The notes under the pieces were generated by a model. The model did no database searches, was not told where the DNA came from, and worked only from the letters and a program-made list of their open reading frames with translations. A DNA stretch of 32,238 nucleotides from Pseudomonadota bacterium (lineage in GTDB: Bacteria; Pseudomonadota; Gammaproteobacteria; Steroidobacterales; Steroidobacteraceae). The position numbers and the translations under genes are program-made. Shown here in pieces: positions 6,267 to 30,775 of the stretch. The stretch is taken from the NCBI GenBank assembly GCA_041180705.1, contig JBEGRA010000155.1:1-32238 (forward strand). Direction: 5' to 3'. Each line of letters opens with the position of its first letter. Position 1 is the stretch's first letter.

Positions 6267-6436
6267 GACGCGAGTTCCGTGTTGGCTGGAGCAGGGCTGC
6301 GGCAAAGCCGGCGGGGGTGAAGGGTAGACGCTCGCCGCACGGGGGACAACTGGGCTTTTCTGCCAGTACACAGCCACGGCGCGGCGCGTTACGCTCACCC
6401 GACAACAGACACGGGCGCAGACCCGAAGGGGGCATC

Positions 6437-11380: not shown

Positions 11381-11401
11381 TCGCGACCCGTATTTCAAAA
11401 C

Positions 11402-12253: not shown

Positions 12254-12328
12254 GAGAAAGTCCTTGAAGAATAGGTGCCTGCGATCAGTCGGAACGCAGC
12301 ACTCACGACTGCGAGCTAACGTCGGGCG

Positions 12329-12883
12329 TCAGATCAGACTGGCTTGCGCGGCAAGTGAGAGCATGGCCTGATGAAGGTGGTGCACGGCAGTGCGCGACAG
12401 GCTCTGCAGGACCATGATTTCAAAACCTTGCGCGATCGGGGTGATGATCGCGGGCATGTCTGCCAGCGGCGCACGGGCGGTTTGGCCGATTCCGAAGCGT
12501 TCGGTCCGCAGATCAAGCGGGCAGTACCGCGCAAGCACCTCCGCCGCGCCCGCACCGACCAGATGCATCACCGCCCAGGCGTCGCCCTGGTCGGTGAGAG
12601 CCGCAAATTCTGGAAGCGAAGGGGCTGCAGGCGTTGCACCAATCAGCAGATATTGATCGGTACCGAACCACAACAGCCGATGGTCTGCCGCCGCAGTCAC
12701 CTTGCCGACTTCGGGCAGAGTAAGCCCATGGCTCGCCTGAAGCGCCTTGGCCAGAGCCGAAGACTTGCCCTGGCGTGCCTGGATCGAACTGATGAAAGCC
12801 GGCGCAGCTTCGGTCAATGTCACTTGCCCGGCGCTTCGCGGAAGCAGCCCGGAAAGCGGGCTCTTTGCGACCAGATCAACCAT
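12329..12883 (-). CDS. soxG: Sarcosine oxidase subunit gamma
   Basis: The ATG at 12883 overlaps the soxA stop (ATGGTTGA), indicating translational coupling. Size ~184 aa and position after soxA fit SoxG. Confidence 0.82.
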   Translation of the reverse strand: MVDLVAKSPLSGLLPRSAGQVTLTEAAPAFISSIQARQGKSSALAKALQASHGLTLPEVGKVTAAADHRLLWFGTDQYLLIGATPAAPSLPEFAALTDQGDAWAVMHLVGAGAAEVLARYCPLDLRTERFGIGQTARAPLADMPAIITPIAQGFEIMVLQSLSRTAVHHLHQAMLSLAAQASLI

Positions 12884-15815: not shown

Positions 15816-16084
15816 TTCGCACCTCGCTTCACGTCGGCGGCCAGGCGGGTCGAGGCAAATTCGTGCGAGCCCATGTTCCGTTCGGCGACGATCCAGGACC
15901 GGCACCCCATTTCGTGCAGCCACAATTCGCGGTGCGCGCCGGCGGGGTTCTCACGAAAATAGACATATTCGACAAAGGCCTGTTCGCCCGCATCGGGCGC
16001 AGGCCGGTCCATCAGTACCGCCGTGCCGAGATACTGGAACTCGCGCCGGTCGCGGCTGCCGCAGTTGGGACAATCAATACGCAT
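15812..16084 (-). CDS. soxD: Sarcosine oxidase subunit delta
   Basis: 90 aa. MRIDCPNCGSRDRREFQYLG zinc-ribbon start typical of SoxD, located between soxB and soxA. Confidence 0.9.
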   Translation of the reverse strand: MRIDCPNCGSRDRREFQYLGTAVLMDRPAPDAGEQAFVEYVYFRENPAGAHRELWLHEMGCRSWIVAERNMGSHEFASTRLAADVKRGAK

Positions 16085-16096
16085 GGTTCGTCCCCA

Positions 16097-17347
16097 TCAA
16101 TGCCGTCCGGGCCGCGGGCCGGCACCGGTCTCGTCGATCAGTTCGCCGGTTTCGAACCGCTTCAGCGTGAACTTGTCGGCGGCGGGGTGGTAATTGCCGG
16201 TGGCGATCAGGTGGGCAAAAGCATCGCCGCCGCCGGTAATCGCCTTGAACCCGCCGTAGCACCAACCGGTGTTGATGAAGAAATTCTCGACCGGCGAGCG
16301 ATCGATGATCGGCGAACCGTCCATCGTCATGTCGTTGATCCCGCCCCACGAGCGCAATAGTTTGGACTTGCCGATCATCGGCATCAGCGCCATGCCGGCC
16401 TCGGCGACATGTTCCATCATCGGCAGATTGCCGCGCTGGGCATAGCTGTTGTAACCATCGAGATCGCCGCCGAACACCAGCCCGCCCTTGTCCGACTGGC
16501 TGATGTAGAAATGGCCCATGCCGAAACCGATCACCGTCGGCAGCACGGGCTTCAGACCTTCGGTGACGAACGCTTGCAGGACATGGCTTTCAATCGGCAG
16601 GCGGAAGCCTGCCATCGCCGCCACCTCGCCCGATCTTCCCGCGACAGCCATGCCGACCTTGGTCGTCCGGATGAAGCCGCGCGAAGTCTCTACCCCGACG
16701 ACCTTGCCACCTTCGACCCTGAACCCCTGGACCGCGCAGTTCTGGATAATGTCGACCCCCAGCCGATCCGCGCCGCGGGCATAGCCCCAGACCACCGCAT
16801 CGTGCCGCGCCGTGCCGCCATTCGGGTGCCAGTGCGCGCCATAGATCGGGAAGCGGGGATCGTCGTAATTGAGGTAGGGCATCTGGCGGCGGCATTCCTC
16901 CAGGCTCCACACCTCGCCGCCGTCGCCCTCCAGCTGGCAGAAATTGGCACGGCGGGCCATGGCTTCCATCTGCGCGTCGCTGTGCCCCAGCGCGACCAGA
17001 CCGCGCTGGCTGAACATCACGTTGTAGTTCAGTTCCTGCTCGAGATTTTCCCACAGCTTGATGCAATGCGAATAGAATTTCACATTGGCCGTGCTCATGT
17101 AATTCGCGCGAATGATGGTGGTGTTTCGGCCTGAATTTCCACCACCGATGTAGCCGCGTTCAAGCACCGCGACGTTGCGGATGCCATGCACCTTGGCGAG
17201 GTAATATGCCGTTGCAAGGCCATGCCCGCCGCCGCCAACGATCACCACGTCATAGCGCTGCTTCGGCTCCGGATCACGCCAGACCGGTTTCCAAGCCTTG
17301 TTGCCGGTCAGCCCGTTGCGGAACACTTCCCATGCCGAATAGCGCAT
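16097..17347 (-). CDS. soxB: Sarcosine oxidase subunit beta
   Basis: 416 aa. MRYSAWEVFRNGL..., FAD fold YDVVIVGGGGHGLATAYYLA. First gene of the soxBDAG order. Confidence 0.93.
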   Translation of the reverse strand: MRYSAWEVFRNGLTGNKAWKPVWRDPEPKQRYDVVIVGGGGHGLATAYYLAKVHGIRNVAVLERGYIGGGNSGRNTTIIRANYMSTANVKFYSHCIKLWENLEQELNYNVMFSQRGLVALGHSDAQMEAMARRANFCQLEGDGGEVWSLEECRRQMPYLNYDDPRFPIYGAHWHPNGGTARHDAVVWGYARGADRLGVDIIQNCAVQGFRVEGGKVVGVETSRGFIRTTKVGMAVAGRSGEVAAMAGFRLPIESHVLQAFVTEGLKPVLPTVIGFGMGHFYISQSDKGGLVFGGDLDGYNSYAQRGNLPMMEHVAEAGMALMPMIGKSKLLRSWGGINDMTMDGSPIIDRSPVENFFINTGWCYGGFKAITGGGDAFAHLIATGNYHPAADKFTLKRFETGELIDETGAGPRPGRH

Positions 17348-17523: not shown

Positions 17524-19782
17524 TCAGAAATTGACGGTCAGCGAAGCGCCAAACGTGCGCGGAGTGCGATAGGATTGCTGGATATAACCCAGGTCTCCCG
17601 TGAGATCGAATGCGTAGATCCGATTGACCTTGTTGGTGATATTCCTGACGAAGGCCGCGACTTCGAAATTCTTGTTGGCCGGTGTCCAGGCGACACGCCC
17701 GTTGAGCAGGAAGGTTGACCCTTCCGCAAGGCCCGGCTGGTTGAGATTGTCGAAGAAGATCGACGAGCTGTAATTGCCATCGACCTGGAACGCCAGCGAA
17801 CCACTGTTCGAAAGGTCGACGGTGTAGCGCGCCGAGGCATTCGCTGTGAAATCGGGGGCAAGCACCATCTTGCGGTCACGGATTGCTCCCGAGCCATCCT
17901 GGACATTCTTGACCTTGGTATCGAGCACCGAAACGCCAGCAGTGATCAGCAGGGCGTCGGTCCAGTAGCCGCTATACTCGAGCTCGCCGCCCGTGACCTT
18001 GGCATCGGCATTGAACAGCAGCTGGTTCAGGTTGCGGTAAACAAATGCCTGGCTGTCGTTGTAGTCGTAATAGAAGACGGCCCCGTTGAGGCGGTGTCGG
18101 CGATCGCCAAATTCTGTCTTGAAGCCCACTTCATAGCTGGTCAGCTTTTCCGGCTTAACCGAATAGTTCGCGGGCGCAACCGGACCAAAGCCGCTGTTGA
18201 AAGTGCCTGCCTTGTAGCCGCTGGAAACGCCGCCGTAGAGCAGCACGTTGTCACTCGGCTCCCAGACCAGCTTGGCGAGGTAAGAATTGTTGTCGGTGTC
18301 CTGCTTGGCCAGCGCGCCTATTGTCGTGCTGTCGTAGGCAATCCCGCCCGGCACGACACCCAGCAGGAAGGTTTGCGACATGTCCTTCTTGTCCTGGGTA
18401 TACCGCAGACCGCCGTTGAAGGTGAGCGTCGGTGCCAGCTTGTATTCGAACTGGCCGAACAGCGCCCAGCTCTTCGTCTGGGTGTCAAAGGCGGTAGTTC
18501 CCGAGGCCGTGCCGAAGAAGAATCCGGCTACAGGGCCTGCAAGGGTCTGCGTTCCGTCCGTTTGAAGGTTGAAGTAGTAGGCTCCCAGGTTCCACGTAAA
18601 GGCATCGCTCTTGCCCTGCAGCCGCAGCTCCTGGCTGTATTGCTTGGTATTGGAGGTGTACTGGGTGATGCAGAACACCGCCGGAGCGCTGTCACAGTCC
18701 TGTTGCTGGTTCTTCTTGAAATGCTGGTAGTTGCTGATCGAAACCAGCTCCACCCCGCCAAGATCGACATCCAGCCGCGCGGTGCCGGCATTGTAGTCCG
18801 AATTCACGAACAGGCCCGGGCTGACATTGATGTCGTTGAGGTCGCTCGTGCCGACGACGATATCGCGATGTGCCGTATCGACCCGTGAAAGGCCATCCGC
18901 ACCGAAGAACGAGGGCGCATAGCGATAGGGGTTGCCGCCGTTGTTGCGGTTGTGCGAAGTTTCACCGGACAGCAGCAACGTCGCATTGTCAGACATCTTG
19001 AACTTCAACTGGCCGCGGAACGCATAGAGATCGACCTTGTTGCCATCCTCTGCGCCCGCCGCCGTATTCTGGTTCTGCTGGATACCGCTGTTGCGATGAT
19101 ACATTGCCGAAATGCGCGCTGAAACGCCGGTCCCGAGCGGACCGCCGACTGCGCCTTCAAGATTGACATCACCAAACGATCCGCCGCCAGCGCGCAGGAA
19201 ACCATCGAGTTCATCGGTCGGCTTCTTGGTGATGTAATGAATCAGGCCGCCGGTTGCGTTGCGTCCGAACAGGGTACCCTGCGGCCCCTTGAGAACTTCG
19301 ACCCGGTTGATATCGAACAGCTGGAAGTCGAGGCTCGCGAGCGCGCCCTTGTAGGCTTCATCGACGTAAACCGCCGAGGGGCTTTCGTGGTAGTCGCGAA
19401 AATCGTTGAGGCCCACGCCGCGAATGGCAATGTTCGGGATGTTACCCGCGCCGAACACCGGCGAGATCCTGAGGCCCGGGGTCAGATCAGCCAGGTCGTT
19501 GCTGCTCTTGATCCCGGCCCGCACCAGCGCGTCACCCGAAATGGCGGTGATGGCGATCGGCGTCGACTGGGCCGATTGTTCGCGCTTTTGGGCGGTGACG
19601 ACAATCTCTTCAAGCTGCCCGTCCCGGGCTTCCGCTTGTGCCGCCTCTTGCGCCGAGGCCTGTGAGGCCGGCCAGATCAGGAGGCTGCCCGTAAGCAAGA
19701 GCGCCTTGGCAAGACCGCGGGATGCCCCAGCGATTCGAGCCCGTTCAATCCCGTTTCCGACGATAATGCTACGCTCGTTCAT
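17524..19782 (-). CDS. TonB-dependent outer-membrane receptor
   Basis: 752 aa. Signal peptide ending ASQASAQEA, plug region EEIVVTAQKREQSAQSTPIAITAISGDAL and VEVLKGPQGTLFGRNATGG, C-terminal beta-barrel ending TFGASLTVNF (terminal aromatic residue). Confidence 0.92.
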   Translation of the reverse strand: MNERSIIVGNGIERARIAGASRGLAKALLLTGSLLIWPASQASAQEAAQAEARDGQLEEIVVTAQKREQSAQSTPIAITAISGDALVRAGIKSSNDLADLTPGLRISPVFGAGNIPNIAIRGVGLNDFRDYHESPSAVYVDEAYKGALASLDFQLFDINRVEVLKGPQGTLFGRNATGGLIHYITKKPTDELDGFLRAGGGSFGDVNLEGAVGGPLGTGVSARISAMYHRNSGIQQNQNTAAGAEDGNKVDLYAFRGQLKFKMSDNATLLLSGETSHNRNNGGNPYRYAPSFFGADGLSRVDTAHRDIVVGTSDLNDINVSPGLFVNSDYNAGTARLDVDLGGVELVSISNYQHFKKNQQQDCDSAPAVFCITQYTSNTKQYSQELRLQGKSDAFTWNLGAYYFNLQTDGTQTLAGPVAGFFFGTASGTTAFDTQTKSWALFGQFEYKLAPTLTFNGGLRYTQDKKDMSQTFLLGVVPGGIAYDSTTIGALAKQDTDNNSYLAKLVWEPSDNVLLYGGVSSGYKAGTFNSGFGPVAPANYSVKPEKLTSYEVGFKTEFGDRRHRLNGAVFYYDYNDSQAFVYRNLNQLLFNADAKVTGGELEYSGYWTDALLITAGVSVLDTKVKNVQDGSGAIRDRKMVLAPDFTANASARYTVDLSNSGSLAFQVDGNYSSSIFFDNLNQPGLAEGSTFLLNGRVAWTPANKNFEVAAFVRNITNKVNRIYAFDLTGDLGYIQQSYRTPRTFGASLTVNF

Positions 19783-19980: not shown

Positions 19981-21240
19981 CTAGGCTTTTGCTGCAGCAT
20001 CACGACTGATGGCGCGATTGAGCAAGGCCACGCCCCACAAGTTGACCAGACAAACCGAGTAGAAAATCGCTGCGATCAGGAGCGGCAGGGTGAAATCGGT
20101 TTTCGATACGAAGTTGGAAGCGAAGAAGGGGCCGATCGCGATCCCGGCCTTGACCATCAACAGAAACAGCACCGCAGCGCGTCCGGTCCGGTCCATTTCG
20201 ATCGCGAAGGCCAGAAGGTAGGGAAAGGGAAACGTGATGCAGAACACGTAGACCATTAGCGCCAGCACATAGGCGGTTGGCCCAGTGAGGTAGAATCCCA
20301 GTACGCCCAGCGAAGCGAGCTGCAAGGCCAGGGTAATGACACAGGGCCACAGGCGGCCGATCCGGTCGCTGAGCAACCACGCCACAACCGACCCGCCAAT
20401 CCCCGCCAGGAACGACAGCGAGAGCGTCTGGCCGACCGCTTCGACCGACATGCCCGATGCCACGCCAAGACGTTCGATATAGGCCCAACTGGCAGCATAG
20501 GCGACATGGAACCAGAACGCCGGAAGGGTCGCGAACAGCACTACCAGCACCGCGCGAGTCAGTGCAGAGCCCGTCAAACCGCTTTTGGCGACGCTACCTT
20601 CTTCGCTTTCACGGGGCCACTTGCCAGCCGACGGCATCCAGAAGGCAGCAATAAGGGCTGGCATGGCAAGCGCCGCCAGGAAGCCATAGGCACCTGCTAC
20701 GCCATAGCCTTCGATGAAGCGCGGCATAACCAGGAAACCCGCAGAGGCAACCGCCATCTGCATGCCGATAAACAGGGCCGTGTTGCGTTCCGGGCGCGAA
20801 CCGTCGGTCAGCGCAGTTCCGCCCAGTGCCATCATCGACCCGCCGCAGAAACCCGCCAGCAGTCTGACCGCGAGCAGCGGCGCAAAGTGCTGCAATTGCG
20901 AGGATACGACGTGGCACAGGCAAAGGCAGAGCGCCAGTCCAATGGCAAGGCGCCTCCAGTTCGCCCGCCGGATCCAATAGATCGCGGCAATAGCAGCGAG
21001 AAACATGCCAAACATGTCGGCCGAAGCGATCAGCCCGACCTCTCGGGTGGAAAAGTCGAGATGGTCGGTGACAGCCCCCACTACCATCGGCAGCAGCGGA
21101 AAACTGATCGACCCCATGACGAAGACGAACAGTGCTGCGACTATTCTGACGGTCCGATCGACCTCAGTGGCCTGTTCCTGTGTGTCCGGGTTCACCGCGT
21201 CGATCCCTTCGGTTTGATTTTCAAGATACTGGCCAGTCAA
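19981..21240 (-). CDS. MFS transporter
   Basis: 419 aa, about 12 hydrophobic segments in a typical MFS layout. The start is a TTG at 21240 that overlaps the upstream gene by 20 nt, so the exact start is uncertain. Confidence 0.78.
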   Translation of the reverse strand: MTGQYLENQTEGIDAVNPDTQEQATEVDRTVRIVAALFVFVMGSISFPLLPMVVGAVTDHLDFSTREVGLIASADMFGMFLAAIAAIYWIRRANWRRLAIGLALCLCLCHVVSSQLQHFAPLLAVRLLAGFCGGSMMALGGTALTDGSRPERNTALFIGMQMAVASAGFLVMPRFIEGYGVAGAYGFLAALAMPALIAAFWMPSAGKWPRESEEGSVAKSGLTGSALTRAVLVVLFATLPAFWFHVAYAASWAYIERLGVASGMSVEAVGQTLSLSFLAGIGGSVVAWLLSDRIGRLWPCVITLALQLASLGVLGFYLTGPTAYVLALMVYVFCITFPFPYLLAFAIEMDRTGRAAVLFLLMVKAGIAIGPFFASNFVSKTDFTLPLLIAAIFYSVCLVNLWGVALLNRAISRDAAAKA

Positions 21241-22291
21241 TGGTCATTCCATTAAGCATTTCAGCAAGCAACATGATCGCAACAAGGAACGCGGCTTCGG
21301 CTCCAAGCAGGATTGCGGCTTTCCGGCCGACCTGGCGAATTTCGAGCAAGGAAGTCTTCAGGCCGACGGCGGAAATCGCGACGATGAGGCATGCGCGCGA
21401 AGCATGACCCAGTGCAGACTGAACATTGGCCGGAACCCATCCGAGGCTTGCCATGACCACGAGTGCAACGAAGCCAACCAGGAACAGCGGGACAAGCGGC
21501 GCCCGGTTCGCAATGCTGTCAGCCGGGTGGCGAGCCCGAAATGCGGCACCAAGTCCCAATACTACCGGGAGCAGCATGGCTACCCGCAGCATTTTCGTCA
21601 GCACGGCATAGTCACCGGCTTCATGGGAAATGCTGTATCCCGCTCCCGCCACTTGGGCAACGTCGTGAATCGTCCCGCCGATAAAGACCCCGGACTGAGA
21701 GGCAGATAGCCCCAGATGCTTCGCTATGACCGGGTAGAGGATCATCGCTAATGTCGAAAGCACGGTGATCCCGGCTATAGTAAAACTCAGTTGCCGCTCG
21801 GATGATTCATCGCGGGGCAAGACCGCCGCGATCGCCATGGCCGCCGATGCACCGCAGATCGCAGTCGCGCCGCCTGTGAGGATCCCAAGGTTGCGATCAA
21901 GACCCAGGATTCGGCTCATGACGATACCGAAGGCAATGGTGGTGAAAACACCCGCAATGACCAGCCCGCCATTGAACCACCCCAGGCCGCCGATCTGATC
22001 CATGGTGATCCGGGCTCCCAGCAGGGCGACGCCCAGCCGCAGCACCCGCTTGCCAGCAAAGCTGACGCCAGCACAGGCTTTGCCTTCTGCACTGAGCGGA
22101 TGAAGCGCCAATCCCAGAAGGAGCGCAAGCAGCATCACCGGCCCGCCGTAGGTGCCCGCAACGAAGGTAGCCGCAACCGCAATCACGCAAGCCAGAACAA
22201 AGCCGGGCCAGATATCCAGAACGCGATTGGCAATCGTCTGGCGCGCGCCTTCGAACATGATCAAAGACGCCCGGCTGGCAATGACTGCCAA
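21221..22291 (-). CDS. YeiH/UPF0324 family membrane protein (database label: putative sulfate exporter family transporter)
   Basis: 356 aa polytopic protein. WPGFVLACVIAVAATFV..., GVFIGGTIHDVAQVAGAGYS (a conserved YeiH-type block as I recall it). The start is either the TTG at 22291 or the ATG at 22258. Confidence 0.78.
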   Translation of the reverse strand: MAVIASRASLIMFEGARQTIANRVLDIWPGFVLACVIAVAATFVAGTYGGPVMLLALLLGLALHPLSAEGKACAGVSFAGKRVLRLGVALLGARITMDQIGGLGWFNGGLVIAGVFTTIAFGIVMSRILGLDRNLGILTGGATAICGASAAMAIAAVLPRDESSERQLSFTIAGITVLSTLAMILYPVIAKHLGLSASQSGVFIGGTIHDVAQVAGAGYSISHEAGDYAVLTKMLRVAMLLPVVLGLGAAFRARHPADSIANRAPLVPLFLVGFVALVVMASLGWVPANVQSALGHASRACLIVAISAVGLKTSLLEIRQVGRKAAILLGAEAAFLVAIMLLAEMLNGMTIDWPVS

Positions 22292-22503: not shown

Positions 22504-23622
22504 TTAGTTGCCCAAAGCTTCAGCTGACGGAGTATGTTTCAGCCCTAGCGCATCGGCGACCGGGCCGCAGGTAATCCTGCCATTCCAGACGTTCAGACCT
22601 GCGGCCAGGTGATGATCGGACCGAAGTGCTTCGCCCCAGCCAAGATCCGCGATGCGCAGCGCATGGGGCAAAGTAACGTTGTTTAATGCATAGGTGCTGG
22701 TGCGAGCAACCGCGCCTGGCATATTGGCAACGCAGTAATGAACGATCTGATCGACAACATATGTAGGCTCTGCGTGTGTTGTCGGCTTGGACGTTTCGAA
22801 GCAGCCGCCCTGGTCAATCGCAACATCCACTAGCACAGCCCCGGGTTGCATTGTCCCGAGCATGGCCCTCGTCACTAACTTGGGAGCCGATGCCCCAGGA
22901 ACGAGTACGGCTCCAATGACCAGGTCTGCCTGGGCAACACATTCGGCGATGTTGGCCTGATTGGCAAAGCGCGTCTTCGCACTGGCGGCGAAATGTACAG
23001 CCAAGCGTTCGAGCACATCTGGATTGCGATCCAGGATCGTTACGTCAGCACCCAGGCCAACGGCCATTTGCGCTGCATTGAACCCGACAACTCCGCCACC
23101 GATGATGGCAACCTTCGCCGGAAGAACCCCCGGAACACCGCCAAGCAAAACGCCGCGGCCTCCGTGGGCTTTCTCTAGCGCCGTTGCGCCGGCCTAGATC
23201 GCCAAGCGACCGGCAATTTGGCTCATCGGCTTGAGCAGTGGCAAACCATTCGTTCGGTCTGTAACCGTCTCATAGGCAATGCAGGTCGCCCCCGAGGTGA
23301 GCAGATCGCGCGCCTGTTCGGGGTCTGGTGCAAGATGCAAATAGGTGAAGAGAACCTGGCCCTCGCGCAGCATGGCTCGCTCGGCAGCTTGCGGCTCCTT
23401 CACCTTTACGATCAGGTCGGCCCGCTCGAAAACCTCCTTGGCGGTTGCGACGATTTGCGCACCCGCTTTCAAAAAGGCCTCATCACTCGCTCCGATGCCC
23501 ATGCCGGCATTCGTCTCGACCAATACCTCGTGACCATGTGCGCGCAGTTCGGCGACGCTTTCGGGCGTCAGGCCGACACGATATTCGTGGTTCTTGATTT
23601 CTCGGACCGTTCCCACGCGCAT
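22504..23622 (-). pseudogene. ald: Alanine dehydrogenase interrupted by one in-frame TAG (23196-23194)
   Basis: ORFs 23194..23760 and 22504..23148 are in the same frame (the 1257-nt span is divisible by 3). Read together they give MRVGTVREIKNHEYRVGLTPESV...[52 protein letters not shown]..., a full-length ~372-codon Ald. The stop sits where Ald proteins have Gln (CAG to TAG). Confidence 0.85.
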
Positions 23623-23790
23623 AGAACCGCGCCCCCTCCACTCAACCGCATCTTGACCGAGGAATTCGACCATGATCGCGATGGACGGGTGGCTAGTCAC
23701 GCCCAGTTGTCTTGTATTGTCGTTTGGTGACACGCTCTTGCTTAACTGCGCCAGACTCATGGCCGCGACAGCCTTTGGCGGGGCGCGACA

Positions 23791-24810
23791 TCAATGCTGC
23801 TCTTCGTTTCGGCAGTTCTTTCGCCAATCGCCCGGTGTCACCCCGTACCAGCGTTTGAAGGCATGGTTGAATGTGCTCTGTTCACGGTACCCAAGGTGAT
23901 AGGCGATCGTGGACAGCTGCAGGTTTCCATCTTCGAGCAATTCGGTAGCCATCATTTTGCGCGTGTCTTCCAGCAGCTTTTCGTAGGTCATTCCTTCGCG
24001 CGAAAGGCGGCGCTGCAGGGTTCGCTTGTTCGAACAGATCTGGTCGGCAATGATCTCGATCGAGAACTGCCCCGTCGGCAAAAATCGGCGGATCAGGCTG
24101 CGGACATTGTCCGGCAGGTTCTTCCTGCCCCAACCGGTTTGCTCGCCCAGTACCGAGGTTACCAGGGCCAGAACATCGTGATCTTCATTGCGGTTCTTGG
24201 CCTGCAGAACCTCGTCGGAAAACTCGATGCCGTCGATCTCGGTATCAAACTCCGGCACCATGCCGAAATACTCGGCATATTTCCGGATCGGGCTGATTGG
24301 AGAGTGCTTGAAGCGGACGGAACCCGGCGTGAAACTGTTGCCGATGAAAATCCGCGCGACCTTCAAGGTCGTCAGCAGCGATTCCTCAACCCACTGGTTT
24401 GATATCGGCCGGAGCGCCTCGTTGAGGAAAAACTGATAGATGAACGACCCGTCCATATCGACGATATCGGCCTCGTATGCCCCGGCAACATGCACGGACG
24501 AGTACCGTTTGATCTCTAGCAGCGCAGTCTGGAAGTCCGGCGCATACTTCAGGATCAGATTGAGCGGCCCGAAAAAGGCGAAATCGCGCGAACGGGCCAG
24601 TTCCAGCCCGAAACTGGGCAGGTTCGCTTCACGCGCCGCCAGTTCATAGCAGGCCAGAATTCCCCGGAATGGTACCCATCGTTCGGGATCGTGAGCGGGA
24701 TTGAAGCCGATGCCGGCCTTGGCGAGGATTGCGGCCGGATCAACGCCACGGCGCGCCACCGCTTCGGTGAGGCCCAGCAAGGCCCGGCTGCGCCCTAACG
24801 GTTCGGTCAC
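23791..24810 (-). CDS. AraC-family transcriptional regulator (Arabinose_bd-type N-terminal domain)
   Basis: C-terminal HTH LSTIAYHLGYREQSTFNHAFKRWYGVTPGDWR. The GTG at 24810 is preceded by GAAGGA; the longest ORF start is at 24900. Divergent from the aminotransferase gene. Confidence 0.85.
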   Translation of the reverse strand: MTEPLGRSRALLGLTEAVARRGVDPAAILAKAGIGFNPAHDPERWVPFRGILACYELAAREANLPSFGLELARSRDFAFFGPLNLILKYAPDFQTALLEIKRYSSVHVAGAYEADIVDMDGSFIYQFFLNEALRPISNQWVEESLLTTLKVARIFIGNSFTPGSVRFKHSPISPIRKYAEYFGMVPEFDTEIDGIEFSDEVLQAKNRNEDHDVLALVTSVLGEQTGWGRKNLPDNVRSLIRRFLPTGQFSIEIIADQICSNKRTLQRRLSREGMTYEKLLEDTRKMMATELLEDGNLQLSTIAYHLGYREQSTFNHAFKRWYGVTPGDWRKNCRNEEQH

Positions 24811-24958
24811 TCTGAATCCTTCTTTACGGCTAGCGCATACTATCAATTGAGTGGCACGAAAAGGCAATACGATCGACTGTCCGGCGTTAATCTGGGCCAT
24901 GGCGGAAAGCGCTGATCAATTCGTCTGCCAGCGAAGGTCCGGGGAGTTAGGAACAGCC
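24811..24958. promoter_or_regulatory. Divergent intergenic control region between the AraC gene and the class-III aminotransferase gene
   Basis: 148-bp gap between divergent starts. Contains two copies of ATCAATT (24842-24848 and 24915-24921), the first inside a CAATTG palindrome. No promoter hexamers could be assigned with confidence. Confidence 0.35.
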
Positions 24959-26248
24959 ATGGAAACCAAGGGTCGCGATCACATCGAAGCGGTAACGCGC
25001 GACCACATCAATTCCGGCAAGATCGACCTGTTCAAGCAGATCGGTGTCAACCTGATCATGGGTGAGCGATCAGGCTGTGACGTATATGATATCTCGGGCG
25101 CGAAATACCTTGACGTGTTGTGCGATGGTTCGACCTACAATTTCGGACACCGCAATCCAGAGATCATCGATACGCTCAAGGCAGCCCTCGACCGGGTCGA
25201 TATCGGTTGCCAGTTTCTGGCTTCGAGAGAGCGAGCGCTACTGGCCAAAGACATCGTCCGCACCAGCCCCGAGGGGCTGAGCTATGTCCATTTCATTGCC
25301 AGCGGCAGTGAGGCCAACGACGCCGCGATCAAGGCTGCGCGCTTCGCCACCGGGCGGCGCAAGATCGTTTCCATTGCCAAGAGCTTCCACGGCGTAACGG
25401 GACTGGCGGCCAATGCCAGCGACAAGGCTTTCTGGCAGCCCTTCAATGCTGGCCGGAACTCCGACGATTTCGTGACAGTCGCTTGGAACGATCTGGGGCA
25501 GATGGCCGATGCGTTGGCCGGTGAAGACGTCGCCGCGGTGCTGATCGAAACGGTGCCGGCGACGCTGGGCTGGCCGATCCCGGCGGATGACTATCACGCT
25601 GGGGTCAAGGCGCTGTGCGAGCGCCACGGCGCATTGCTGATCATGGATGAAATCCAGACCGGCCTGGGGCGAAGCGGCCACCTGTGGGGGCTTGAGCGCT
25701 GGGGCGCCCGGCCCGACATCATGGTGGTAGCCAAGGGCATCGGCGGCGGGATCTATCCCTTTGCATATCTGGCCATGACCGAACGGGCAGCATCCTGGAC
25801 GCGCGAAGCTCCGCTTGCCATGCCATCGACCTTCGGCGGCAGCGAGCTGGGCTGCGTTGTCGCGCGCAAGGTGCTGGCACTGGCAAGCGCCGACGCCACC
25901 CTTGCCCACGTGCGGGAAATGGCCGCGCTGCTGGGTGCAGGCTTCGACCGGCTCAAGGCCCGGTTCCCCGAGCAGCTGTTGGAGGTTCGCCAGCTCGGCC
26001 TCGCCGCGGGGCTCAAATTTGCCGATCCGGCGGGCGGTGTAAAGATGATGCGATCGCTGTTCCGCCACGGTGTGCTGGCCCTGTTCGCGGGTTACGATCC
26101 TTCGGTCGTCCAGCTGAAACCACCGCTGGTCATAACCGCCGCGCAGATTGGCCAGCTGCTCGATGCGCTCGCCAAGGCGATCGCCGAAATGGATGAACCG
26201 CTGCCATTCACGCAAGGCATGGGCGCGCTGGATGCGCTGCATTCCTGA
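24959..26248 (+). CDS. Class-III (ornithine/GABA/putrescine-type) PLP aminotransferase
   Basis: The ATG at 24959 follows AGGA. FIASGSEANDAAIKAAR, MDEIQTGLGRSG, PLP lysine in DIMVVAKGIGGG. ~429 aa. Confidence 0.88.
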   Translation: METKGRDHIEAVTRDHINSGKIDLFKQIGVNLIMGERSGCDVYDISGAKYLDVLCDGSTYNFGHRNPEIIDTLKAALDRVDIGCQFLASRERALLAKDIVRTSPEGLSYVHFIASGSEANDAAIKAARFATGRRKIVSIAKSFHGVTGLAANASDKAFWQPFNAGRNSDDFVTVAWNDLGQMADALAGEDVAAVLIETVPATLGWPIPADDYHAGVKALCERHGALLIMDEIQTGLGRSGHLWGLERWGARPDIMVVAKGIGGGIYPFAYLAMTERAASWTREAPLAMPSTFGGSELGCVVARKVLALASADATLAHVREMAALLGAGFDRLKARFPEQLLEVRQLGLAAGLKFADPAGGVKMMRSLFRHGVLALFAGYDPSVVQLKPPLVITAAQIGQLLDALAKAIAEMDEPLPFTQGMGALDALHS

Positions 26249-26259
26249 CCGCGCGCGCC
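26177..26259. repeat. 83-bp direct repeat, copy 1 (authentic 3' end of the aminotransferase gene plus 11 nt downstream)
   Basis: Aligns base-for-base with 27247-27329 (offset 1070). I count 7 mismatches, all transitions. Encodes AIAEMDEPLPFTQGMGALDALHS-stop. Confidence 0.9.
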
Positions 26260-26511
26260 ACCCGGTCTGGGCCGCCACTTGTCGATCCTCGCCGCACAAA
26301 AGCTGCAGGAATAGGCGGTGGAATTGGCAGGCGACTACGCAGCTTTAAACCAGTTTGTGGCGCACCAGCCGGGCAGCAATATCCCGCCCATCGGGCCAGA
26401 GGCCGCCCTGACCGGGGTGCCCAGCTATTTCAACGGCAGGGCCGCGTCCAATTAAGGGAGGGGGAGGCCAATGAAATTCTGCACGGGATCATCGCCCAGT
26501 TGGTTCTGAGC

Positions 26512-27159
26512 CTATATAGGCGCGCGTTGTCCTTGGGGGCGGTTGGCGATTTCCCGCGCGCGTGCGGCTGCAAAGCCGGGGCGATCTTTCAGCCGGGCGT
26601 ACCAGCCTTGGGTCAGCGGCCCCAATTCCGCATCATAGCCAAAGCTGGCGCTCAGGTGGACGGCATAGCCCACGCAGACATCCGCGATCGTAAAGCGCCC
26701 ACCAGTCAGCCAATCACGGCCGTCTGCCAGCGCCTCTTCAATGCTCTTGGCGCGGCCTATGAAGAACCCTTTATAATCCGCCACAGCCTGCGGCAGTTGA
26801 CGCGCGTTCGGTTCCAACCGGGTGTAGCGCAGCACGATCGTCAGCGGAAAGGTCAGCGTCGCATCACTGCGGTGCAGCCAGTTGAGAAAGGACAGGTATT
26901 CGCTTTCTTCGGCGCGGATTTCCAGCGCGGTGCCCTGCGCGATCCGTTGGCAGATGGCGGCGCTTTCGGTCAGCAAATGGCCATTTTCTACCCAAGCGGG
27001 GATCGTGCCTAAGGGGTTGATGTCCTTAAATTGCTTGGCAAACCAGCGGGGCGGGAAGGGCCACATTTTTAAATCAAGGTCAAAGCCCGTTTCTTCGGCG
27101 GCCCAAAGGCAGCGAAAGGATCGGGCGCCTTCGCAATGGTGCAAAATGGGCAGGGCCAC
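26512..27159 (-). CDS. Glutathione S-transferase family protein
   Basis: The GTG at 27159 is preceded by AGGA. ALPILHHCEGARSFRCLWAAEETGFDLDLKMWPFPP...INPLGTIPAWVENGHLLTESAAICQRI (thioredoxin-like N-domain), then a helical C-domain. The 314-aa track ORF is this gene plus read-through into repeat copy 2. Confidence 0.85.
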   Translation of the reverse strand: MALPILHHCEGARSFRCLWAAEETGFDLDLKMWPFPPRWFAKQFKDINPLGTIPAWVENGHLLTESAAICQRIAQGTALEIRAEESEYLSFLNWLHRSDATLTFPLTIVLRYTRLEPNARQLPQAVADYKGFFIGRAKSIEEALADGRDWLTGGRFTIADVCVGYAVHLSASFGYDAELGPLTQGWYARLKDRPGFAAARAREIANRPQGQRAPI

Positions 27160-27246
27160 GGCGTCAGTTCCTAGGGTTGGGCAATAGCAGGGCGGTGGTC
27201 GCGCCACGCAAATTACAGGCCTCCTGCAATGATGATGGGCGTGCTT

Positions 27247-27329
27247 GCGATCGCCGAAATGGATGAACCACTGCCATTCGCGCAAGACATGGGCGCGCTG
27301 AATGCGCTGCATTCCTAATCGCGCGCACC
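27247..27329. repeat. 83-bp direct repeat, copy 2 (orphan 3' fragment of an aminotransferase gene)
   Basis: Encodes AIAEMDEPLPFAQDMGALNALHS-stop with no gene body upstream (only MMMGVL in frame). ~92% identical to 26177-26259. Confidence 0.9.
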
Positions 27330-27344
27330 CGATCAGGAATGCAG
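27307..27344 (-). terminator. Stem-loop immediately downstream of the Dabb gene (10-bp perfect stem, 18-nt loop)
   Basis: CTGCATTCCT (27307-27316) is the exact reverse complement of AGGAATGCAG (27335-27344). It begins 5 nt after the Dabb stop (27350-27352). There is no clear U-tract, so it may be a processing or stabilising hairpin rather than an intrinsic terminator. Confidence 0.45.
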
Positions 27345-27349
27345 TCAGA

Positions 27350-27640
27350 TCAAACCGTGTAGTGAACCCTTGCCACGGCTTCTCCCAGGGGAACAAATTG
27401 CTGCGCGAAGGCAATGTGATCGGGATGACCGGCGTAGCCGCGCATTGCAGCCTCATCCGCGAAATCGATCACCAGGGCATAGTCCCAAGTCCCTTCCATC
27501 AGCTTCAGGTTCGGACCGAACTCGAAACGGTGGATACCGGGAACAACGCTTGAAATCGCGGCAAAACCCTCGCCAACCCGGACGATGTCTTCGGCGGTGA
27601 CTTCGGGTTTGAATTTCACCATCGTGATCTGTCGGATCAT
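27350..27640 (-). CDS. Dabb (stress-responsive alpha/beta-barrel, dimeric) family protein
   Basis: 96 aa. MIRQITMVKFKPEVTAEDI...FEFGPNL...WDYALVIDFADEAAMRGYAGHPDHIAF fits the Dabb pattern. GGAGAG lies 10 nt-scale upstream, directly after the aminotransferase stop. Confidence 0.85.
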   Translation of the reverse strand: MIRQITMVKFKPEVTAEDIVRVGEGFAAISSVVPGIHRFEFGPNLKLMEGTWDYALVIDFADEAAMRGYAGHPDHIAFAQQFVPLGEAVARVHYTV

Positions 27641-27650
27641 GTCACTCTCC

Positions 27651-29015
27651 TCAGGCGACGCTCTTGAGCGCCTTGGTAACCGCGGCGGCGATGCGGTCGA
27701 TCTCGTCGCGGGTCACCACCAGCGGCGGGGCAATCAGCAGGATGTTGCAGCGCCCGGGCACGGTGTTGGTATTGCGACCCAGGATCACCCCATCACCCCT
27801 GCAACTTGCCAGGATCTGCATGATCTTGGCTTCGCCGAGCGGCACCTTGCTCTCGCGGTCTTCGACCAGTTCGATTCCCGTGAGCATGCCCAGCCCGCGA
27901 ATCTCACCGACATGGGGGTGCTGGCCCAATTCGCGGCCCAGCACATCGCGCACATGGTCGCCCTGCTCACGGGCATTGCCCGCCAGACCTTCGCGCTCCA
28001 CGATCGCGATCGCCTCCAGCGCGATCGCCGCGCCAACCGGATGACCGCCGAACGTGTTGATCTGGCGCAAGTGTCGCATGCTGTCCGACGCGCCGTCGAA
28101 GCCGGTGAAGACATGGTCCTTCACCACCGTCGCGCCCATCGGGAAGTAACCGCTCGAAAGCCCCTTGGCGAAAGTGTAAATATCCGCCTCGGTCGCCCAG
28201 TGCTCATAACCGAACATGGTCCCGAGCCGGCCGAAACCGGAGACGACCTCGTCGAAGATCAGCAAGACGCCGTACCGATCGCAGATCTGGCGGACCAGCG
28301 GCAGGTAATTGTCCGGGGGCACGATAACCCCGCCGCCCGACATCATCGGCTCCATGATCACCGCAGCCACCGTATTGGCGCCTTCGTGGATGATTGCCTC
28401 TTCAAGCAGGCGGGCGCACTCTGCGCCGTGTTCCAGCGTGCTCAGCTTGGGATGGGCGCGGAACGGGTAGGGCGGCATGACGTGCACGAAGCCCGCCGGT
28501 CCAGGCTCCGATCCGGTCTTGCGCTCGGCCTGGCCGGTGGCAGCCATCGCGCCGGCCGTGTTGCCGTGATAGGCCCGATAGCGTGAGATGATCTTGTAGC
28601 GGTTGTCGCCGGGCTTACCGTTCTGCAGATGATACTGCCGGGCAATCTTGAATGCGGCTTCATTGGCTTCCGAACCGCTCGACGAAAAATAGCTGTGGCA
28701 CTTGAAGCCCAGCATTGTCTTCATCTTTTCGGCAAGCGCCAGCGTGGGCTCACAGGCCATGACCGGCGCCAGGTAGTTGAGTTGCTCCATTTGCCGCGCA
28801 GCGATTTCACCGATCTCGCGCCGGCCATATCCGATGTTGACGCACCACAGTCCGGCCAGACCGTCGAGCAGCTGCGCACCATTGTTCATGGTCAGCGTGC
28901 AGCCCTTGGCAGACTGCATCTGCGGCGGCGTGGTTCCTCGCAGCGCAGCGTGCTGGGTCAGCGGACGCCATAGTTGGTCGGGATAATCGGCGGTCATGCT
29001 TTGCGCGCTGTCCAT
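27651..29015 (-). CDS. Class-III omega-aminotransferase (omega-amino acid:pyruvate / taurine:pyruvate-like subgroup)
   Basis: 454 aa. GLWCVNIGYGRREI, SSGSEANEAAFKIARQYH, ISRYRAYHGNT, ATGQAERK, FDEVVSGFGRLG, PLP lysine in IYTFAKGLSSGY, NTFGGHP. The start lies 11 nt after the ThDP gene stop, with AGGAA in between. Confidence 0.9.
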   Translation of the reverse strand: MDSAQSMTADYPDQLWRPLTQHAALRGTTPPQMQSAKGCTLTMNNGAQLLDGLAGLWCVNIGYGRREIGEIAARQMEQLNYLAPVMACEPTLALAEKMKTMLGFKCHSYFSSSGSEANEAAFKIARQYHLQNGKPGDNRYKIISRYRAYHGNTAGAMAATGQAERKTGSEPGPAGFVHVMPPYPFRAHPKLSTLEHGAECARLLEEAIIHEGANTVAAVIMEPMMSGGGVIVPPDNYLPLVRQICDRYGVLLIFDEVVSGFGRLGTMFGYEHWATEADIYTFAKGLSSGYFPMGATVVKDHVFTGFDGASDSMRHLRQINTFGGHPVGAAIALEAIAIVEREGLAGNAREQGDHVRDVLGRELGQHPHVGEIRGLGMLTGIELVEDRESKVPLGEAKIMQILASCRGDGVILGRNTNTVPGRCNILLIAPPLVVTRDEIDRIAAAVTKALKSVA

Positions 29016-29026
29016 TGGCTGTTCCT

Positions 29027-30775
29027 TTATTCCGCCGCGGTCCTGACCCGCATTTCGATCATGCCCTGTGTCAGTGGCGATTTGACCCCTTGAGTCACCA
29101 CGTCGACGAAGGACGAGATATTCTGGTTGTTGTGCAAGGCGCGCTCGATTGCCGAGCGCAGCTGCGAAGCATCATCGACGCGCTCGGCATAGGCACCGCC
29201 GCCAGAAAAGATCTTGCTGTAATCCATCTTGCGCAGGCTGGTTGCGACGACTTCGCCCCACATTTCCTTCTGCTGTTCCTGGATCATGCCCCACTGCGCA
29301 TTGTTGGCGACAAGCAGTGTAACCGGCGCGTTATGGTCGATCGACGTCTCAAGCGGGGTAACCCCCGGCGAGAGCCCGAGCGAACCGTCACCCGTCACCA
29401 GAACCACGCGCGATTCCGGCGAGGCCATCTTGACCGCAGTGGCATAGGCCGGACCGGTTCCCATCTGCTCCCACGGACCGGGGTTGATGATCGCCTTGAT
29501 CTTCTTGCCTTCAAGCGCCCAGATGCTGAGCGCGGTCTCGAACCAGCAGGCGATGTCGCCGCCGTCGATCACCATGATGTCCTTTTCGCCAAGCGACGAC
29601 AAAGCCTGGTAGCACAGCGCCACAGGGTGGATTGCCCCTTCGCTGGCATCGAGGTGCGGGCGATATTGTTCGACGCTTTCGCGCCGGCGCTCGCGGATGG
29701 AGGCGGGCCAGTCGGCACCGACCGACATGAGGCCTTCTTCAGCCTCCAGCGCTTTGAACAGCATCTTGATGTCGCTGCAGATGCGCGTATCCACCAGCAT
29801 GTTGTCACTCAGTTCACGCGGCGTGGGATTGACCGCGACCATGTGCAAACCAAGCCCAAACAGCGGCGCCTCACCAAAGTTGAGCGGGAAGTCGAGCCGG
29901 CCACCCAGGAACAGCACCAGGTCCACCTCGTCCATCAGGCAGCGTGAACACGGGTTCTGGTGATAGTCGACGATTCCCATGTTGTTGGGATGCGACATGT
30001 CATAGGTCTTGAGATGGGTTGTAGGCACAAAGATCGGCACGTTGTAGCGGGTCGAGAAGTCCTCCATCTCGCGCTCGGCATGCGCGAACCAGACCCCGGG
30101 TCCGGCGATGATGATCGGCTTTTTCGCCTTTGCCAGTAGATTCTTCAGCTCGGCCACGTCGTCAGGATTGGGTGCGGGCTTGTGCACCTTGTGGCGCTTT
30201 GTATCGAACTTGCGTGCGCCTTCGCGCTGCTCGAGACGGATCTTGCCCGAGAACAGGAAGTTGGTCGGGATAACCAGCTGCACCGGCCCGGTCGGCTGGT
30301 TGACGCAGATGTCATAGGCCTTGTCGAAGAACCAGCCGATCCGCTCCGGCGCGTTCACCTCGATCGCATATTTGGTCATGCAGCGGACGACTTCGGCCTG
30401 GGGCATTTCCTTGAAGCCCGCATTGTCGAAATTGTTGGTGTTCGAAGAGGCGCTGATGAAGATCACCGGATCGCCGACGTAGTAGGCTTCGGCCACTGCC
30501 GAGACATAGTTGGTGAAGCCGCTCGGTTCTGCAAGGCAAACGGTTGGCTCGCGCGTCAGCCGGGCATGGGCAGCCGCCATGAAGCCGGCCTCGAGCTCGT
30601 TACGGCAGCCGATGACTTCGATGCCGTATTCCGCGCAGCCCATGTAAATCGGATTGATGAACCCGCCGCACAGCGAATAGACGCGCTTGATCCCCTTGTC
30701 CGCCATGGCCTTGGCGAGCAGCGTTCCGCCGCTGATCTTGCCGCTAAGCGCCTTCTTGGTGTTTGCCGCATCCAT
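29027..30775 (-). CDS. Thiamine-diphosphate-dependent enzyme (acetolactate synthase / oxalyl-CoA decarboxylase / sulfoacetaldehyde acetyltransferase superfamily), specificity unknown
   Basis: ~582 aa from the ATG at 30775 (GGAGA upstream). N-terminal Pyr domain with catalytic Glu context CRNELEAGFMAAAHARL. ThDP motif VTGDGSLGLSPG...LLVANNAQWG (GDG-x-NN). Confidence 0.88.
   Translation of the reverse strand: MDAANTKKALSGKISGGTLLAKAMADKGIKRVYSLCGGFINPIYMGCAEYGIEVIGCRNELEAGFMAAAHARLTREPTVCLAEPSGFTNYVSAVAEAYYVGDPVIFISASSNTNNFDNAGFKEMPQAEVVRCMTKYAIEVNAPERIGWFFDKAYDICVNQPTGPVQLVIPTNFLFSGKIRLEQREGARKFDTKRHKVHKPAPNPDDVAELKNLLAKAKKPIIIAGPGVWFAHAEREMEDFSTRYNVPIFVPTTHLKTYDMSHPNNMGIVDYHQNPCSRCLMDEVDLVLFLGGRLDFPLNFGEAPLFGLGLHMVAVNPTPRELSDNMLVDTRICSDIKMLFKALEAEEGLMSVGADWPASIRERRRESVEQYRPHLDASEGAIHPVALCYQALSSLGEKDIMVIDGGDIACWFETALSIWALEGKKIKAIINPGPWEQMGTGPAYATAVKMASPESRVVLVTGDGSLGLSPGVTPLETSIDHNAPVTLLVANNAQWGMIQEQQKEMWGEVVATSLRKMDYSKIFSGGGAYAERVDDASQLRSAIERALHNNQNISSFVDVVTQGVKSPLTQGMIEMRVRTAAE

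Follow-up and report, generated by a model that had tools for sequence, protein, structure and literature searches.

A thiamine diphosphate enzyme of an unnamed family, an omega-aminotransferase and a Dabb protein: a conserved proteobacterial operon and its possible role in the catabolism of small omega-amino compounds

Three minus-strand genes at positions 27350 to 30775 of a contig from a member of the Steroidobacteraceae raise a simple question. The contig is JBEGRA010000155.1 of assembly GCA_041180705.1, and the whole stretch that was analysed, 32,238 nucleotides in length, is called the window. The genes encode a thiamine diphosphate (ThDP) enzyme, a class-III (omega) aminotransferase, AT1, and a small protein of the stress-responsive alpha/beta-barrel family, Dabb. 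What compound do these proteins break down, and by which reaction? A preliminary description of the window had proposed that an amine is converted to a carbonyl compound that the ThDP enzyme then cleaves, as in the dissimilation of taurine. The genes, their relatives and their neighbourhoods were explored with this question in mind. The three-gene unit is a real and widely conserved operon. It may lie at the centre of a pathway that degrades a small omega-amino compound, of the taurine or beta-alanine type, a tentative reading that is given just short of an even chance.

The operon and its three proteins

The genes for the ThDP enzyme (29027..30775, 582 aa), AT1 (27651..29015, 454 aa) and the Dabb protein (27350..27640, 96 aa) follow one another on the minus strand. 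Their domains were confirmed by Pfam as TPP_enzyme_N/M/C, Aminotran_3 (PF00202) and Dabb (PF07876), and the peptide blocks named in the preliminary description (GLWCVNIGYGR, FKIARQYH, ISRYRAYHG, ATGQAERK, NTFGGHP and GDG...NN) were all found. The ThDP gene starts with an ATG at 30775 that has GGAG 8 nt upstream; a longer open reading frame with a TTG start reaches 30856. The gap between the ThDP and AT1 genes is TAA-AGGAACAGCCA-ATG, of 11 nt, and that between the AT1 and Dabb genes is TGA-GGAGAGTGAC-ATG, of 10 nt. Both bear a Shine-Dalgarno sequence and are exactly as first reported. The coupling goes beyond chance, because the gene order repeats in dozens of genomes.

The ThDP enzyme belongs to the three-domain superfamily of AHAS, POX and OXC. 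PF02776, PF00205 and PF02775 are each matched above their cutoffs, the motif GDGS...NN lies at residues 462-492, and E60, the cofactor-activating glutamate, is invariant. Among the best 25 of 53 NCBIfam hits, the protein is below every equivalog cutoff. It scores 273 bits with PRK05858 (cutoff 587), 247 bits with the actinobacterial HACL model NF058623 (600), 198 bits with AHAS TIGR00118 (538), 161 bits with AlsS (510), 191.6 bits with PRK07525 (620), 168-181 bits with the OXC models (557-739) and 141 bits with AruI (500). The models for glyoxylate carboligase, IolD and sulfopyruvate/phosphonopyruvate decarboxylase are outside these 25 hits and would score below 136 bits if matched. With the Xsc model, TIGR03457, the score is 188.5 bits against 676.4. 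The first impressions that the enzyme is unlike AHAS or Xsc, and that it is no orthologue of Xsc, therefore stand, and placement by profile hidden Markov models puts the 582-aa protein inside no characterised orthologous group.

There are 147 relatives of the ThDP enzyme at E <= 1e-30 among 5.8 billion proteins, and the 120 that were listed are 46-100% identical to it. The named ones among these bear generic labels only ('TPP-binding', 'acetolactate synthase'), and the organisms that are named are mostly metagenome-assembled genomes (MAGs). No homologue was found by tblastn over 72,556 plasmids, and literature searches for a described ThDP enzyme linked to choline, trimethylamine or sulfoacetaldehyde gave nothing relevant. 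By its sequence, the enzyme founds a distinct orthologous family, unnamed and uncharacterised.

The best solved relatives by both sequence and fold are AcHACL, benzaldehyde lyase (BAL)/formolase and OXC. The AlphaFold model has a pLDDT of 80 with a K122 loop of low confidence, and Foldseek merely repeats the sequence ranking. The residues that are invariant and specific to the family are E83-P-S-G-F87, K122, W411/E413 and I498; E83 lies within a motif EPSGFTNY. Residue roles were taken from work on AcHACL, in which the catalytic E493, the conserved Q128 and the coenzyme A (CoA)-binding Q255, R273, S274, R362 and R417 are defined (PMC8760513). In the alignment, E493 is replaced by the invariant I498, Q128 by the invariant K122 and T88 by the invariant E83. 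The CoA-binding Q255, R273/S274, R362 and R417 align with T253, S277/R278, S367 and A420, and by alignment only, four of the five mapped positions are lost. An assignment as a HACL/OXC-type CoA enzyme was dropped because the catalytic glutamate E493, Q128 and most of the CoA-binding residues are not kept; the model score is also under its cutoff.

AT1 matches PF00202 with 302 bits, passes PRK07678 (509.7 bits, cutoff 488) and has 3n5m as its best PDB match (400 bits). These matches place it among the class-III aminotransferases, in the omega-amine subgroup to which it was first assigned. It is probably pyruvate-dependent and probably acts on a taurine- or beta-alanine-like omega-amino compound. 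AT1 was rejected as an orthologue of the canonical Tpa, with no more than 30-39% identity to the 15 class-III aminotransferases that adjoin Xsc; the JGI tag 'taurine-pyruvate aminotransferase' on many AT1 orthologues is an automated label. A homologue in Marinobacter sediminicola is 60% identical. It is found beside genes for a D-amino-acid dehydrogenase, an alanine racemase, a LysR regulator, MMSDH (695 bits against 448), a DUF1330 protein and a tripartite ATP-independent periplasmic (TRAP) transporter, and this is a beta-alanine-type omega-amino-acid:pyruvate module. Another homologue, in Deltaproteobacterium MED660, sits in a polysaccharide locus and is uninformative.

The Dabb protein matches PF07876 over residues 2-94 with 64.6 bits (cutoff 25). 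It falls into no functional subfamily, and its relatives in the PDB are structural-genomics proteins only, none of them functionally characterised. Membership of its gene in the operon, as first claimed, is supported by the 10-nt gap to AT1 and by the recurrence of its pairing with the ThDP gene, which it adjoins or is near at 19 of 32 loci in genomes and 43 of 80 in metagenomes. Near canonical Xsc it was found at none of 80 loci, and it is taken to be an obligatory accessory protein of the ThDP enzyme. By analogy, the small, related DUF1330 barrel beside MMSDH in Marinobacter hints that the function of Dabb may be tied to an aldehyde intermediate. The pairing gives a defined biochemical context to a very large family of uncharacterised proteins.

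Neighbourhoods of the ThDP family

For the ThDP family, 38 loci from genomes, 80 from metagenomes and 14 annotated contigs were surveyed, and Alpha-, Beta- and Gammaproteobacteria alike keep the neighbourhood. Among the carriers surveyed, Cribrihabitans marinus DSM 29340 is the one named strain in culture. The triad of ThDP enzyme, aminotransferase and Dabb, proposed at first as the unit, was found in the AT1-type clusters; the core is instead ThDP-Dabb, at about 110 loci. In SAR116, Rhodospirillales and Hyphomicrobiales, AT1 is swapped for a GMC dehydrogenase. In all, three architectures surround one orthologous ThDP family.

Type I is found in the window, Novosphingobium, Burkholderiales, many gammaproteobacterial MAGs, Rhodobacteraceae, Aquincola and Luminiphilus. 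Its core is ThDP-AT1-(Dabb) or ThDP-Cupin_3-AT1-Dabb. The conserved companions are a second class-III aminotransferase (AT2), an AraC regulator and an importer, which is either a TonB receptor with a protein of ten transmembrane segments and no Pfam match or an SBP_bac_5 ATP-binding cassette (ABC) system. These clusters frequently include a Sox-like N-demethylase linked to tetrahydrofolate, with PurU/FolD/FTHFS, and often encode a GMC oxidoreductase and an arginase-family hydrolase as well. The protein with ten transmembrane segments has about 370 aa, occurs with AT1-type clusters in more than 25 loci (for example L049 16622-17743, L044 13478-14572 and L052 2957-4075) and is likely a new transporter family. 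A Cupin_3 gene (DUF861, 'EutQ-like', 123 aa) directly follows the ThDP gene in 11 of the 80 metagenome loci (L052 2532-2903; L207-L223). Its identification as an EutQ-type acetate kinase was not kept, as its PDB relatives are all uncharacterised DUF861 proteins. An FMO-family gene in L044 was considered as the trimethylamine monooxygenase Tmm and is Baeyer-Villiger-like instead.

Type II is carried by SAR116/Puniceispirillales, Rhodospirillales, Hyphomicrobiales and TMED lineages. The core is OpuAC-GMC-ABC-ThDP-Dabb, without AT1. The OpuAC family binds dimethylsulfoniopropionate (DMSP) and betaines. Neighbours include a choline-sulfatase equivalog (615-629 bits, cutoff 433) and, in L039, the trimethylamine N-oxide demethylase Tdm (1232 against 1100). 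A DmdA equivalog with a crotonase, a TauD-like oxygenase, an alkylsulfatase and an iron-dependent alcohol dehydrogenase (Fe-ADH) occur as neighbours or as members of the operon. Near one SAR116 ThDP operon (L018), a 3-sulfinopropanoyl-CoA desulfinase equivalog was identified at 17788-19089 (647 bits against 600); with a choline sulfatase and a TauD-family oxygenase, it makes up an organosulfur island.

Type III is found in Desulfobacterales, with ThDP enzymes that are 46-48% identical and no Dabb gene. At these loci (L045, L053 and L249-L251), the ThDP gene is bordered by genes for an MttB-family methyltransferase, a corrinoid protein and TRAP transporters, with those for a three-subunit molybdenum hydroxylase and an amidohydrolase after it. 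Such a gene set suggests an anaerobic pathway, so far undescribed, that handles a methylated compound.

In a neighbour-joining tree, Type III is the outgroup and Types I and II are sister clades; the clades are not taxonomic. The ThDP enzymes of Types I and II differ at 10 conservative positions, and some 100 residues do not vary in any of the three types. Shared chemistry, and probably a shared substrate class, would follow from this, and the sequences suggest one chemistry for all of the contexts. The idea that the AT1-type and GMC-type clades are set apart by a switch in specificity was rejected, as there are only these 10 conservative differences. MMSDH is absent from all 80 metagenome ThDP loci.

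The ThDP module can be supplied by AT1, by a GMC dehydrogenase or by both, as in the window, L013, L028, L208 and L217. Characterised relatives of the GMC enzyme act on compounds of the form X-CH2-CH2-OH. These are BetA (choline), Gmor/DddA, which oxidise 3-hydroxypropionate (PMC12632250, PMC9327192), and IseJ, a flavin-dependent isethionate dehydrogenase (PMC6453916). The ThDP-associated GMC enzymes are 44-54% identical to one another, 33-42% to Escherichia coli BetA and 37-45% to IseJ-like enzymes. They do not pass as BetA, with 421-433 bits for TIGR01810 against a cutoff of 732, and by sequence they are a subgroup of their own. Since the relatives of AT1 and of the GMC enzymes use X-CH2-CH2-NH2 or X-CH2-CH2-OH, the shared intermediate would most simply be a 2-substituted acetaldehyde, X-CH2-CHO.

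Candidate substrates and reactions

What, then, is X? A ThDP enzyme can act on an aldehyde only if the alpha carbon bears a leaving group, as it does for Xsc, phosphoketolase and CEAS, or if there is an alpha-hydroxy or alpha-oxo partner. Among the three isosteric candidates for X, a carboxylate cannot leave, while a sulfonate or an onium group can. The sulfonate is favoured because of an Xsc-like set of accessory genes and the repeated recruitment of PF03601, a putative sulfate/sulfite exporter. Quite possibly, then, AT1 turns taurine or a near analogue into sulfoacetaldehyde, or into a similar acetaldehyde substituted at C2, and the ThDP enzyme removes the substituent and leaves an acetyl unit; we place this slightly below even.

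The accessory genes were compared by scoring 80 canonical Xsc loci with the same seed proteins. Pta and a class-III aminotransferase are each present at 15 of these loci, an IseJ-like GMC enzyme at 9, PF03601 at 7 (48-52% identical to the window copy), alanine dehydrogenase (AlaDH) and SauS at 4 each, and an arginase-like protein at 3. Except for Pta, these modules recur at the loci of the ThDP family. The order SauS-SucC-SucD-Xsc is found in two of the four Xsc loci that bear SauS (L125/L131), and in the L042/L232 lineage the order is SauS-SucC-SucD-ThDP-Dabb (SauS, 764 against 600), with the ThDP gene in the slot of Xsc. PF03601 stands at four different positions: between the AraC and MFS genes in the window, between AT1 and Dabb in L214, after AT1 in L217 and between Dabb and AT2 in L228. 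It has been recruited to ThDP clusters independently several times. The window copy is 32% identical to E. coli YeiH. The taurine-like logic of the preliminary description, amine to carbonyl to ThDP cleavage, is strengthened by these common modules. As an observation on Xsc itself, an arginase-family hydrolase lies immediately upstream of Xsc-Pta in L092, L120 and L122 and is a candidate taurocyamine (guanidinoethanesulfonate) hydrolase.

The pathway could run as follows. Uptake would rely on the TonB receptor and on the MFS transporter. The Sox-like enzyme would first remove methyl groups from N-methyl derivatives, guanidino derivatives could enter by way of the arginase-like enzyme and isethionate-type alcohols by way of the GMC enzyme. 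With pyruvate as the amino acceptor, AT1 would produce alanine together with a 2-substituted acetaldehyde, which is most likely sulfoacetaldehyde, and AlaDH would recycle the alanine to pyruvate. The ThDP ylide would then add to the aldehyde, and an enamine would form and expel the C2 substituent, here sulfite. The enol-acetyl-ThDP left behind would become acetyl-ThDP and release acetate or acetyl phosphate, and the sulfite or sulfate would be exported by the PF03601 transporter.

Several observations weigh against this pathway. Xsc itself is found beside the ThDP family in one locus (L042, where the true Xsc scores 704 bits) and in the same MAG elsewhere (L037/L109), a redundancy that has to be explained. 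Pta adjoins the ThDP gene in none of about 110 loci, and the only Pta, in the L042 lineage, adjoins Xsc. AT1 is closer to the MMSDH-coupled, beta-alanine-type aminotransferase (60%) than to those adjacent to Xsc (30-39%). In the GMC-type operons, the OpuAC-family binding protein is beside choline sulfatase, Tdm or DmdA, which suggests onium compounds or DMSP. The family-specific residues E83, E123, E413, F39, F87 and W411 are largely acidic or aromatic and, read from the sequence, do not obviously form a sulfonate site. A sulfate-exporting role for PF03601 is, moreover, an inferred function.

Those points lead to other readings. The beta-alanine-type context could mean that the hub is malonate semialdehyde, with ThDP-Dabb replacing DddC/MmsA by a ThDP chemistry not yet known. 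AT1 would be a beta-alanine:pyruvate transaminase and the GMC and Fe-ADH enzymes would be DddA/DddB-like 3-hydroxypropionate dehydrogenases; the substrates would be beta-alanine, 3-guanidinopropionate, N-methyl-beta-alanine/beta-alanine betaine or DMSP/3-hydroxypropionate. This gives the best overall fit to the context. The AT1 homologue of 60% identity has MMSDH, the small DUF1330 barrel and a TRAP transporter as its partners, MMSDH itself is missing from the ThDP loci, an arginase-family gene in Cribrihabitans is closest to 3-guanidinopropionase, GMC and Fe-ADH genes co-occur while DddA/Gmor act on 3-hydroxypropionate (PMC12632250, PMC9327192), the DmdA equivalog and crotonase lie inside GMC-ThDP-...-Dabb operons, and OpuAC-type importers are present. 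It is nonetheless unlikely, for it offers no plausible ThDP chemistry: a redox-neutral reaction on a beta-oxo acid is implausible, the carboxylate is no leaving group, and the family appears by sequence to group with the FAD-less HACL, OXC and BAL rather than with FAD-containing ThDP enzymes. The repeated recruitment of PF03601 and the SauS-SucCD position are also left unexplained. The same GMC-type operons could instead produce betaine aldehyde, from choline that stems from choline-O-sulfate, or a sulfonium analogue, from which the ThDP enzyme would free trimethylamine or dimethyl sulfide and an acetyl unit as an oxygen-tolerant counterpart of CutC. OpuAC-GMC-ABC-ThDP-Dabb occurs in four lineages, a true choline sulfatase is alongside in two or three lineages and Tdm in L039, the operon itself includes an alkylsulfatase and a TauD-like oxygenase in L021 and L233-235, and the aromatic and acidic residues would suit a cationic group. 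Yet no natural amine leads to betaine aldehyde by way of AT1, although the AT1-type enzymes share that active site; the GMC enzyme is no orthologue of BetA, the binding protein is none of ChoX or ProX, and the PF03601, arginase-like and SauS contexts go unexplained. An onium substrate is quite unlikely on this balance.

The ThDP enzyme could also be a 2-oxoacid decarboxylase that follows a transaminase, in an Ehrlich-type pathway, in one like AruH-AruI-GbuA-GabT, or as a non-orthologous sulfopyruvate decarboxylase that would supply Xsc with sulfoacetaldehyde. The arginine transaminase pathway likewise combines two aminotransferases with a ThDP enzyme and an arginase-family hydrolase, sulfoacetaldehyde as a product would explain both the coexistence with Xsc and the lack of an adjoining Pta, and the related OXC is a decarboxylase. 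AT1, on the other hand, is in the omega-amine:pyruvate group and not among the alpha-amino-acid transaminases, GMC enzymes oxidise primary alcohols and not 2-hydroxy acids (PMC12632250), no aldehyde dehydrogenase is conserved downstream, the AruI score is far from its cutoff, and the best 25 hits include no ComDE-type model. This, too, is rather improbable. A C-C lyase or carboligase like HACL, OXC or BAL, acting on a 2-hydroxyacyl-CoA, a 2-hydroxy aldehyde, or formaldehyde or glycolaldehyde from demethylases, is very improbable. Its nearest neighbours in sequence and fold are indeed actinobacterial HACL, BAL/formolase and OXC, and demethylases that generate one-carbon units are common nearby with folate genes; against it are the invariant isoleucine and lysine in place of E493 and Q128 of HACL, the loss of four of five mapped CoA residues, the lack of a conserved CoA ligase or transferase nearby (the one SucCD-like pair is part of the sulfoacetate module) and the anaerobic MttB contexts, which yield no free formaldehyde. 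The adjacent sox genes had been proposed at first to feed glycine or glyoxylate to the ThDP enzyme, and this gained no support; a glyoxylate carboligase acting on Sox-derived glycine was rejected, as there are no tartronate-semialdehyde genes and the GMC-type clusters have no AT1. Lastly, ThDP-Dabb might be a two-protein catalyst for a reaction without enzymatic precedent on a 2-substituted or beta-carboxy acetaldehyde, which is a doubtful but serious proposition. One version is an oxygen-tolerant C-N/C-S lyase, in abundant marine bacteria such as SAR116, Rhodobacteraceae and OM60, that would cleave betaine aldehyde or sulfonio-acetaldehyde and free trimethylamine or dimethyl sulfide. The other is a conversion of malonate semialdehyde, independent of NAD and CoA, that replaces DddC in the catabolism of DMSP and beta-alanine.

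If the substrate is sulfoacetaldehyde or a close analogue, as is tentatively favoured, annotation by xsc only would overlook part of the turnover that taurine, isethionate and N-methyltaurine undergo in Proteobacteria of estuaries, fresh waters and the sea. The family is now mislabelled 'acetolactate synthase'. If the substrate is betaine aldehyde or malonate semialdehyde, the family would be a newly recognised origin of trimethylamine or dimethyl sulfide in abundant marine clades, or another way out of the catabolism of DMSP and 3-hydroxypropionate. The enzyme also belongs to the HACL/BAL/OXC branch that is under engineering for one-carbon and two-carbon chemistry, and it is a possible catalyst for such work.

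Flanking genes and comparison with known systems

A strong hairpin follows the Dabb gene on the minus strand (27307..27344). The perfect 10-bp pairing first reported there, ctgcattcct/aggaatgcag at about 27344-27307, is present and makes up the inner part of a longer stem, about 15 bp in all (-32 kcal/mol, z = -2.5, no U tract). A 56-bp direct repeat of 91% identity, at 26201-26256 and 27271-27326, takes in both the 3' end of AT2 and this hairpin. The hairpin is a piece of the repeat that flanks an insertion and no unique terminator, because it lies within the segment that is duplicated at 26201-26256. Insertions were defined by comparison with a contig of Novosphingobium sp. UBA6272 (L011), which has 95-98% nucleotide identity to the window over three aligned blocks. 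The repeat-flanked, strain-specific insertion at 26271-27249 (0.98 kb) is absent from UBA6272 and carries a glutathione S-transferase gene (26512..27150, minus strand); such genes are near the cluster in other lineages too. A second such insertion, 21166-23809 (2.6 kb), is absent from the otherwise syntenic UBA6272 contig and contains the genes for AlaDH (22504..23760) and the YeiH/TauZ-type PF03601 putative sulfate/sulfite exporter (21221..22291), both on the minus strand. The AlaDH gene has one in-frame TAG, at 23194-23196, and it presumably falls on a codon for a glutamine that is conserved in canonical alanine dehydrogenases. The TAG is either a nonsense mutation, which would make this a pseudogene, or a sequencing error. 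Synteny with UBA6272 stops at 31048. Past this point and directly upstream of the operon, a gene on the minus strand (31237-32211) encodes a 2-oxoglutarate-dependent oxygenase of the Asp/Asn beta-hydroxylase type with a C-terminal SEC-C motif.

The other genes of the cluster extend to the left of the operon. AT2 (24851..26248, plus strand) resembles putrescine/acetylornithine aminotransferases, is conserved in AT1-type clusters and probably has its true start near 24959. The nearby regulator, described as AraC-type, was identified as such by a domain search (23791..24900, minus strand). It has an Arabinose_bd domain, its closest model is the amine-responsive QhpR, and it is conserved beside the cluster. 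The remaining genes are all on the minus strand. The MFS transporter (19981..21240) stands where other lineages have the protein of ten transmembrane segments, and the TonB-dependent receptor (17524..19782) is conserved in AT1-type clusters. Within 11402..17347 are soxB (16097-17347), soxA (12876-15923) and a gamma-like gene (12329-12955) for a heterotetramer of the sarcosine-oxidase family, with purU (11402-12253) beside them; these form a tetrahydrofolate-linked N-demethylation module. The GMC oxidoreductase (9767..11398) belongs to the ThDP-associated subgroup and is no orthologue of BetA or the IseJ-like enzymes. The left part of the window holds a housekeeping RelA/SpoT homologue (2276-4480, minus strand) and guanylate kinase (5622-6398, minus strand), which are unrelated to the operon.

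The ThDP enzyme can be compared with two groups of known enzymes. AcHACL (PDB 7pt1) is its top match by sequence (190 bits) and by fold, among the top Foldseek hits, yet the identity is only about 27%. With AcHACL, OXC and BAL it has in common the three-domain architecture and a short helix after the NN motif. It is about 24% identical to an Xsc fragment. With eight full-length Xsc proteins it shares a loop GF(K/Q)E(M)xQ and a QWG motif, whereas E83-P-S-G-F87, K122 and a 5-residue insertion bearing W411 and E413 set the ThDP family apart in this comparison.

The operon as a whole has three counterparts. The arginine transaminase pathway, AruH-AruI, in which AruI is the 5-guanidino-2-oxopentanoate decarboxylase, also joins a ThDP enzyme to a transaminase, with a second class-III aminotransferase and a guanidino hydrolase of the arginase family. 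It differs in that the ThDP enzyme here reaches 141 bits with the AruI model against 500, AT1 is an omega-transaminase and there is no aldehyde dehydrogenase. The catabolism of beta-alanine and 3-hydroxypropionate (BauA, MmsA/DddC, DddA/DddB) has the 60% identical homologue of AT1, an aldehyde supply by GMC and/or Fe-ADH enzymes and, in the Marinobacter module, a small alpha/beta-barrel protein beside the enzyme that consumes the semialdehyde. That consumer is the NAD/CoA-dependent MMSDH, whereas here it is a ThDP enzyme. The taurine module, Tpa-Ald-Xsc(-Pta)-TauZ with entry through IseJ, follows the same course from a transaminase or GMC enzyme through an aldehyde to a ThDP enzyme. AlaDH, the PF03601 exporter, the arginase-family hydrolase and SauS-SucCD are found at both kinds of locus, whereas the Dabb partner accompanies the ThDP family and none of the 80 Xsc loci, and Pta adjoins Xsc and never the ThDP gene. 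In the favoured reading, the known Tpa-Xsc logic is here carried by a non-orthologous ThDP family and its Dabb partner.

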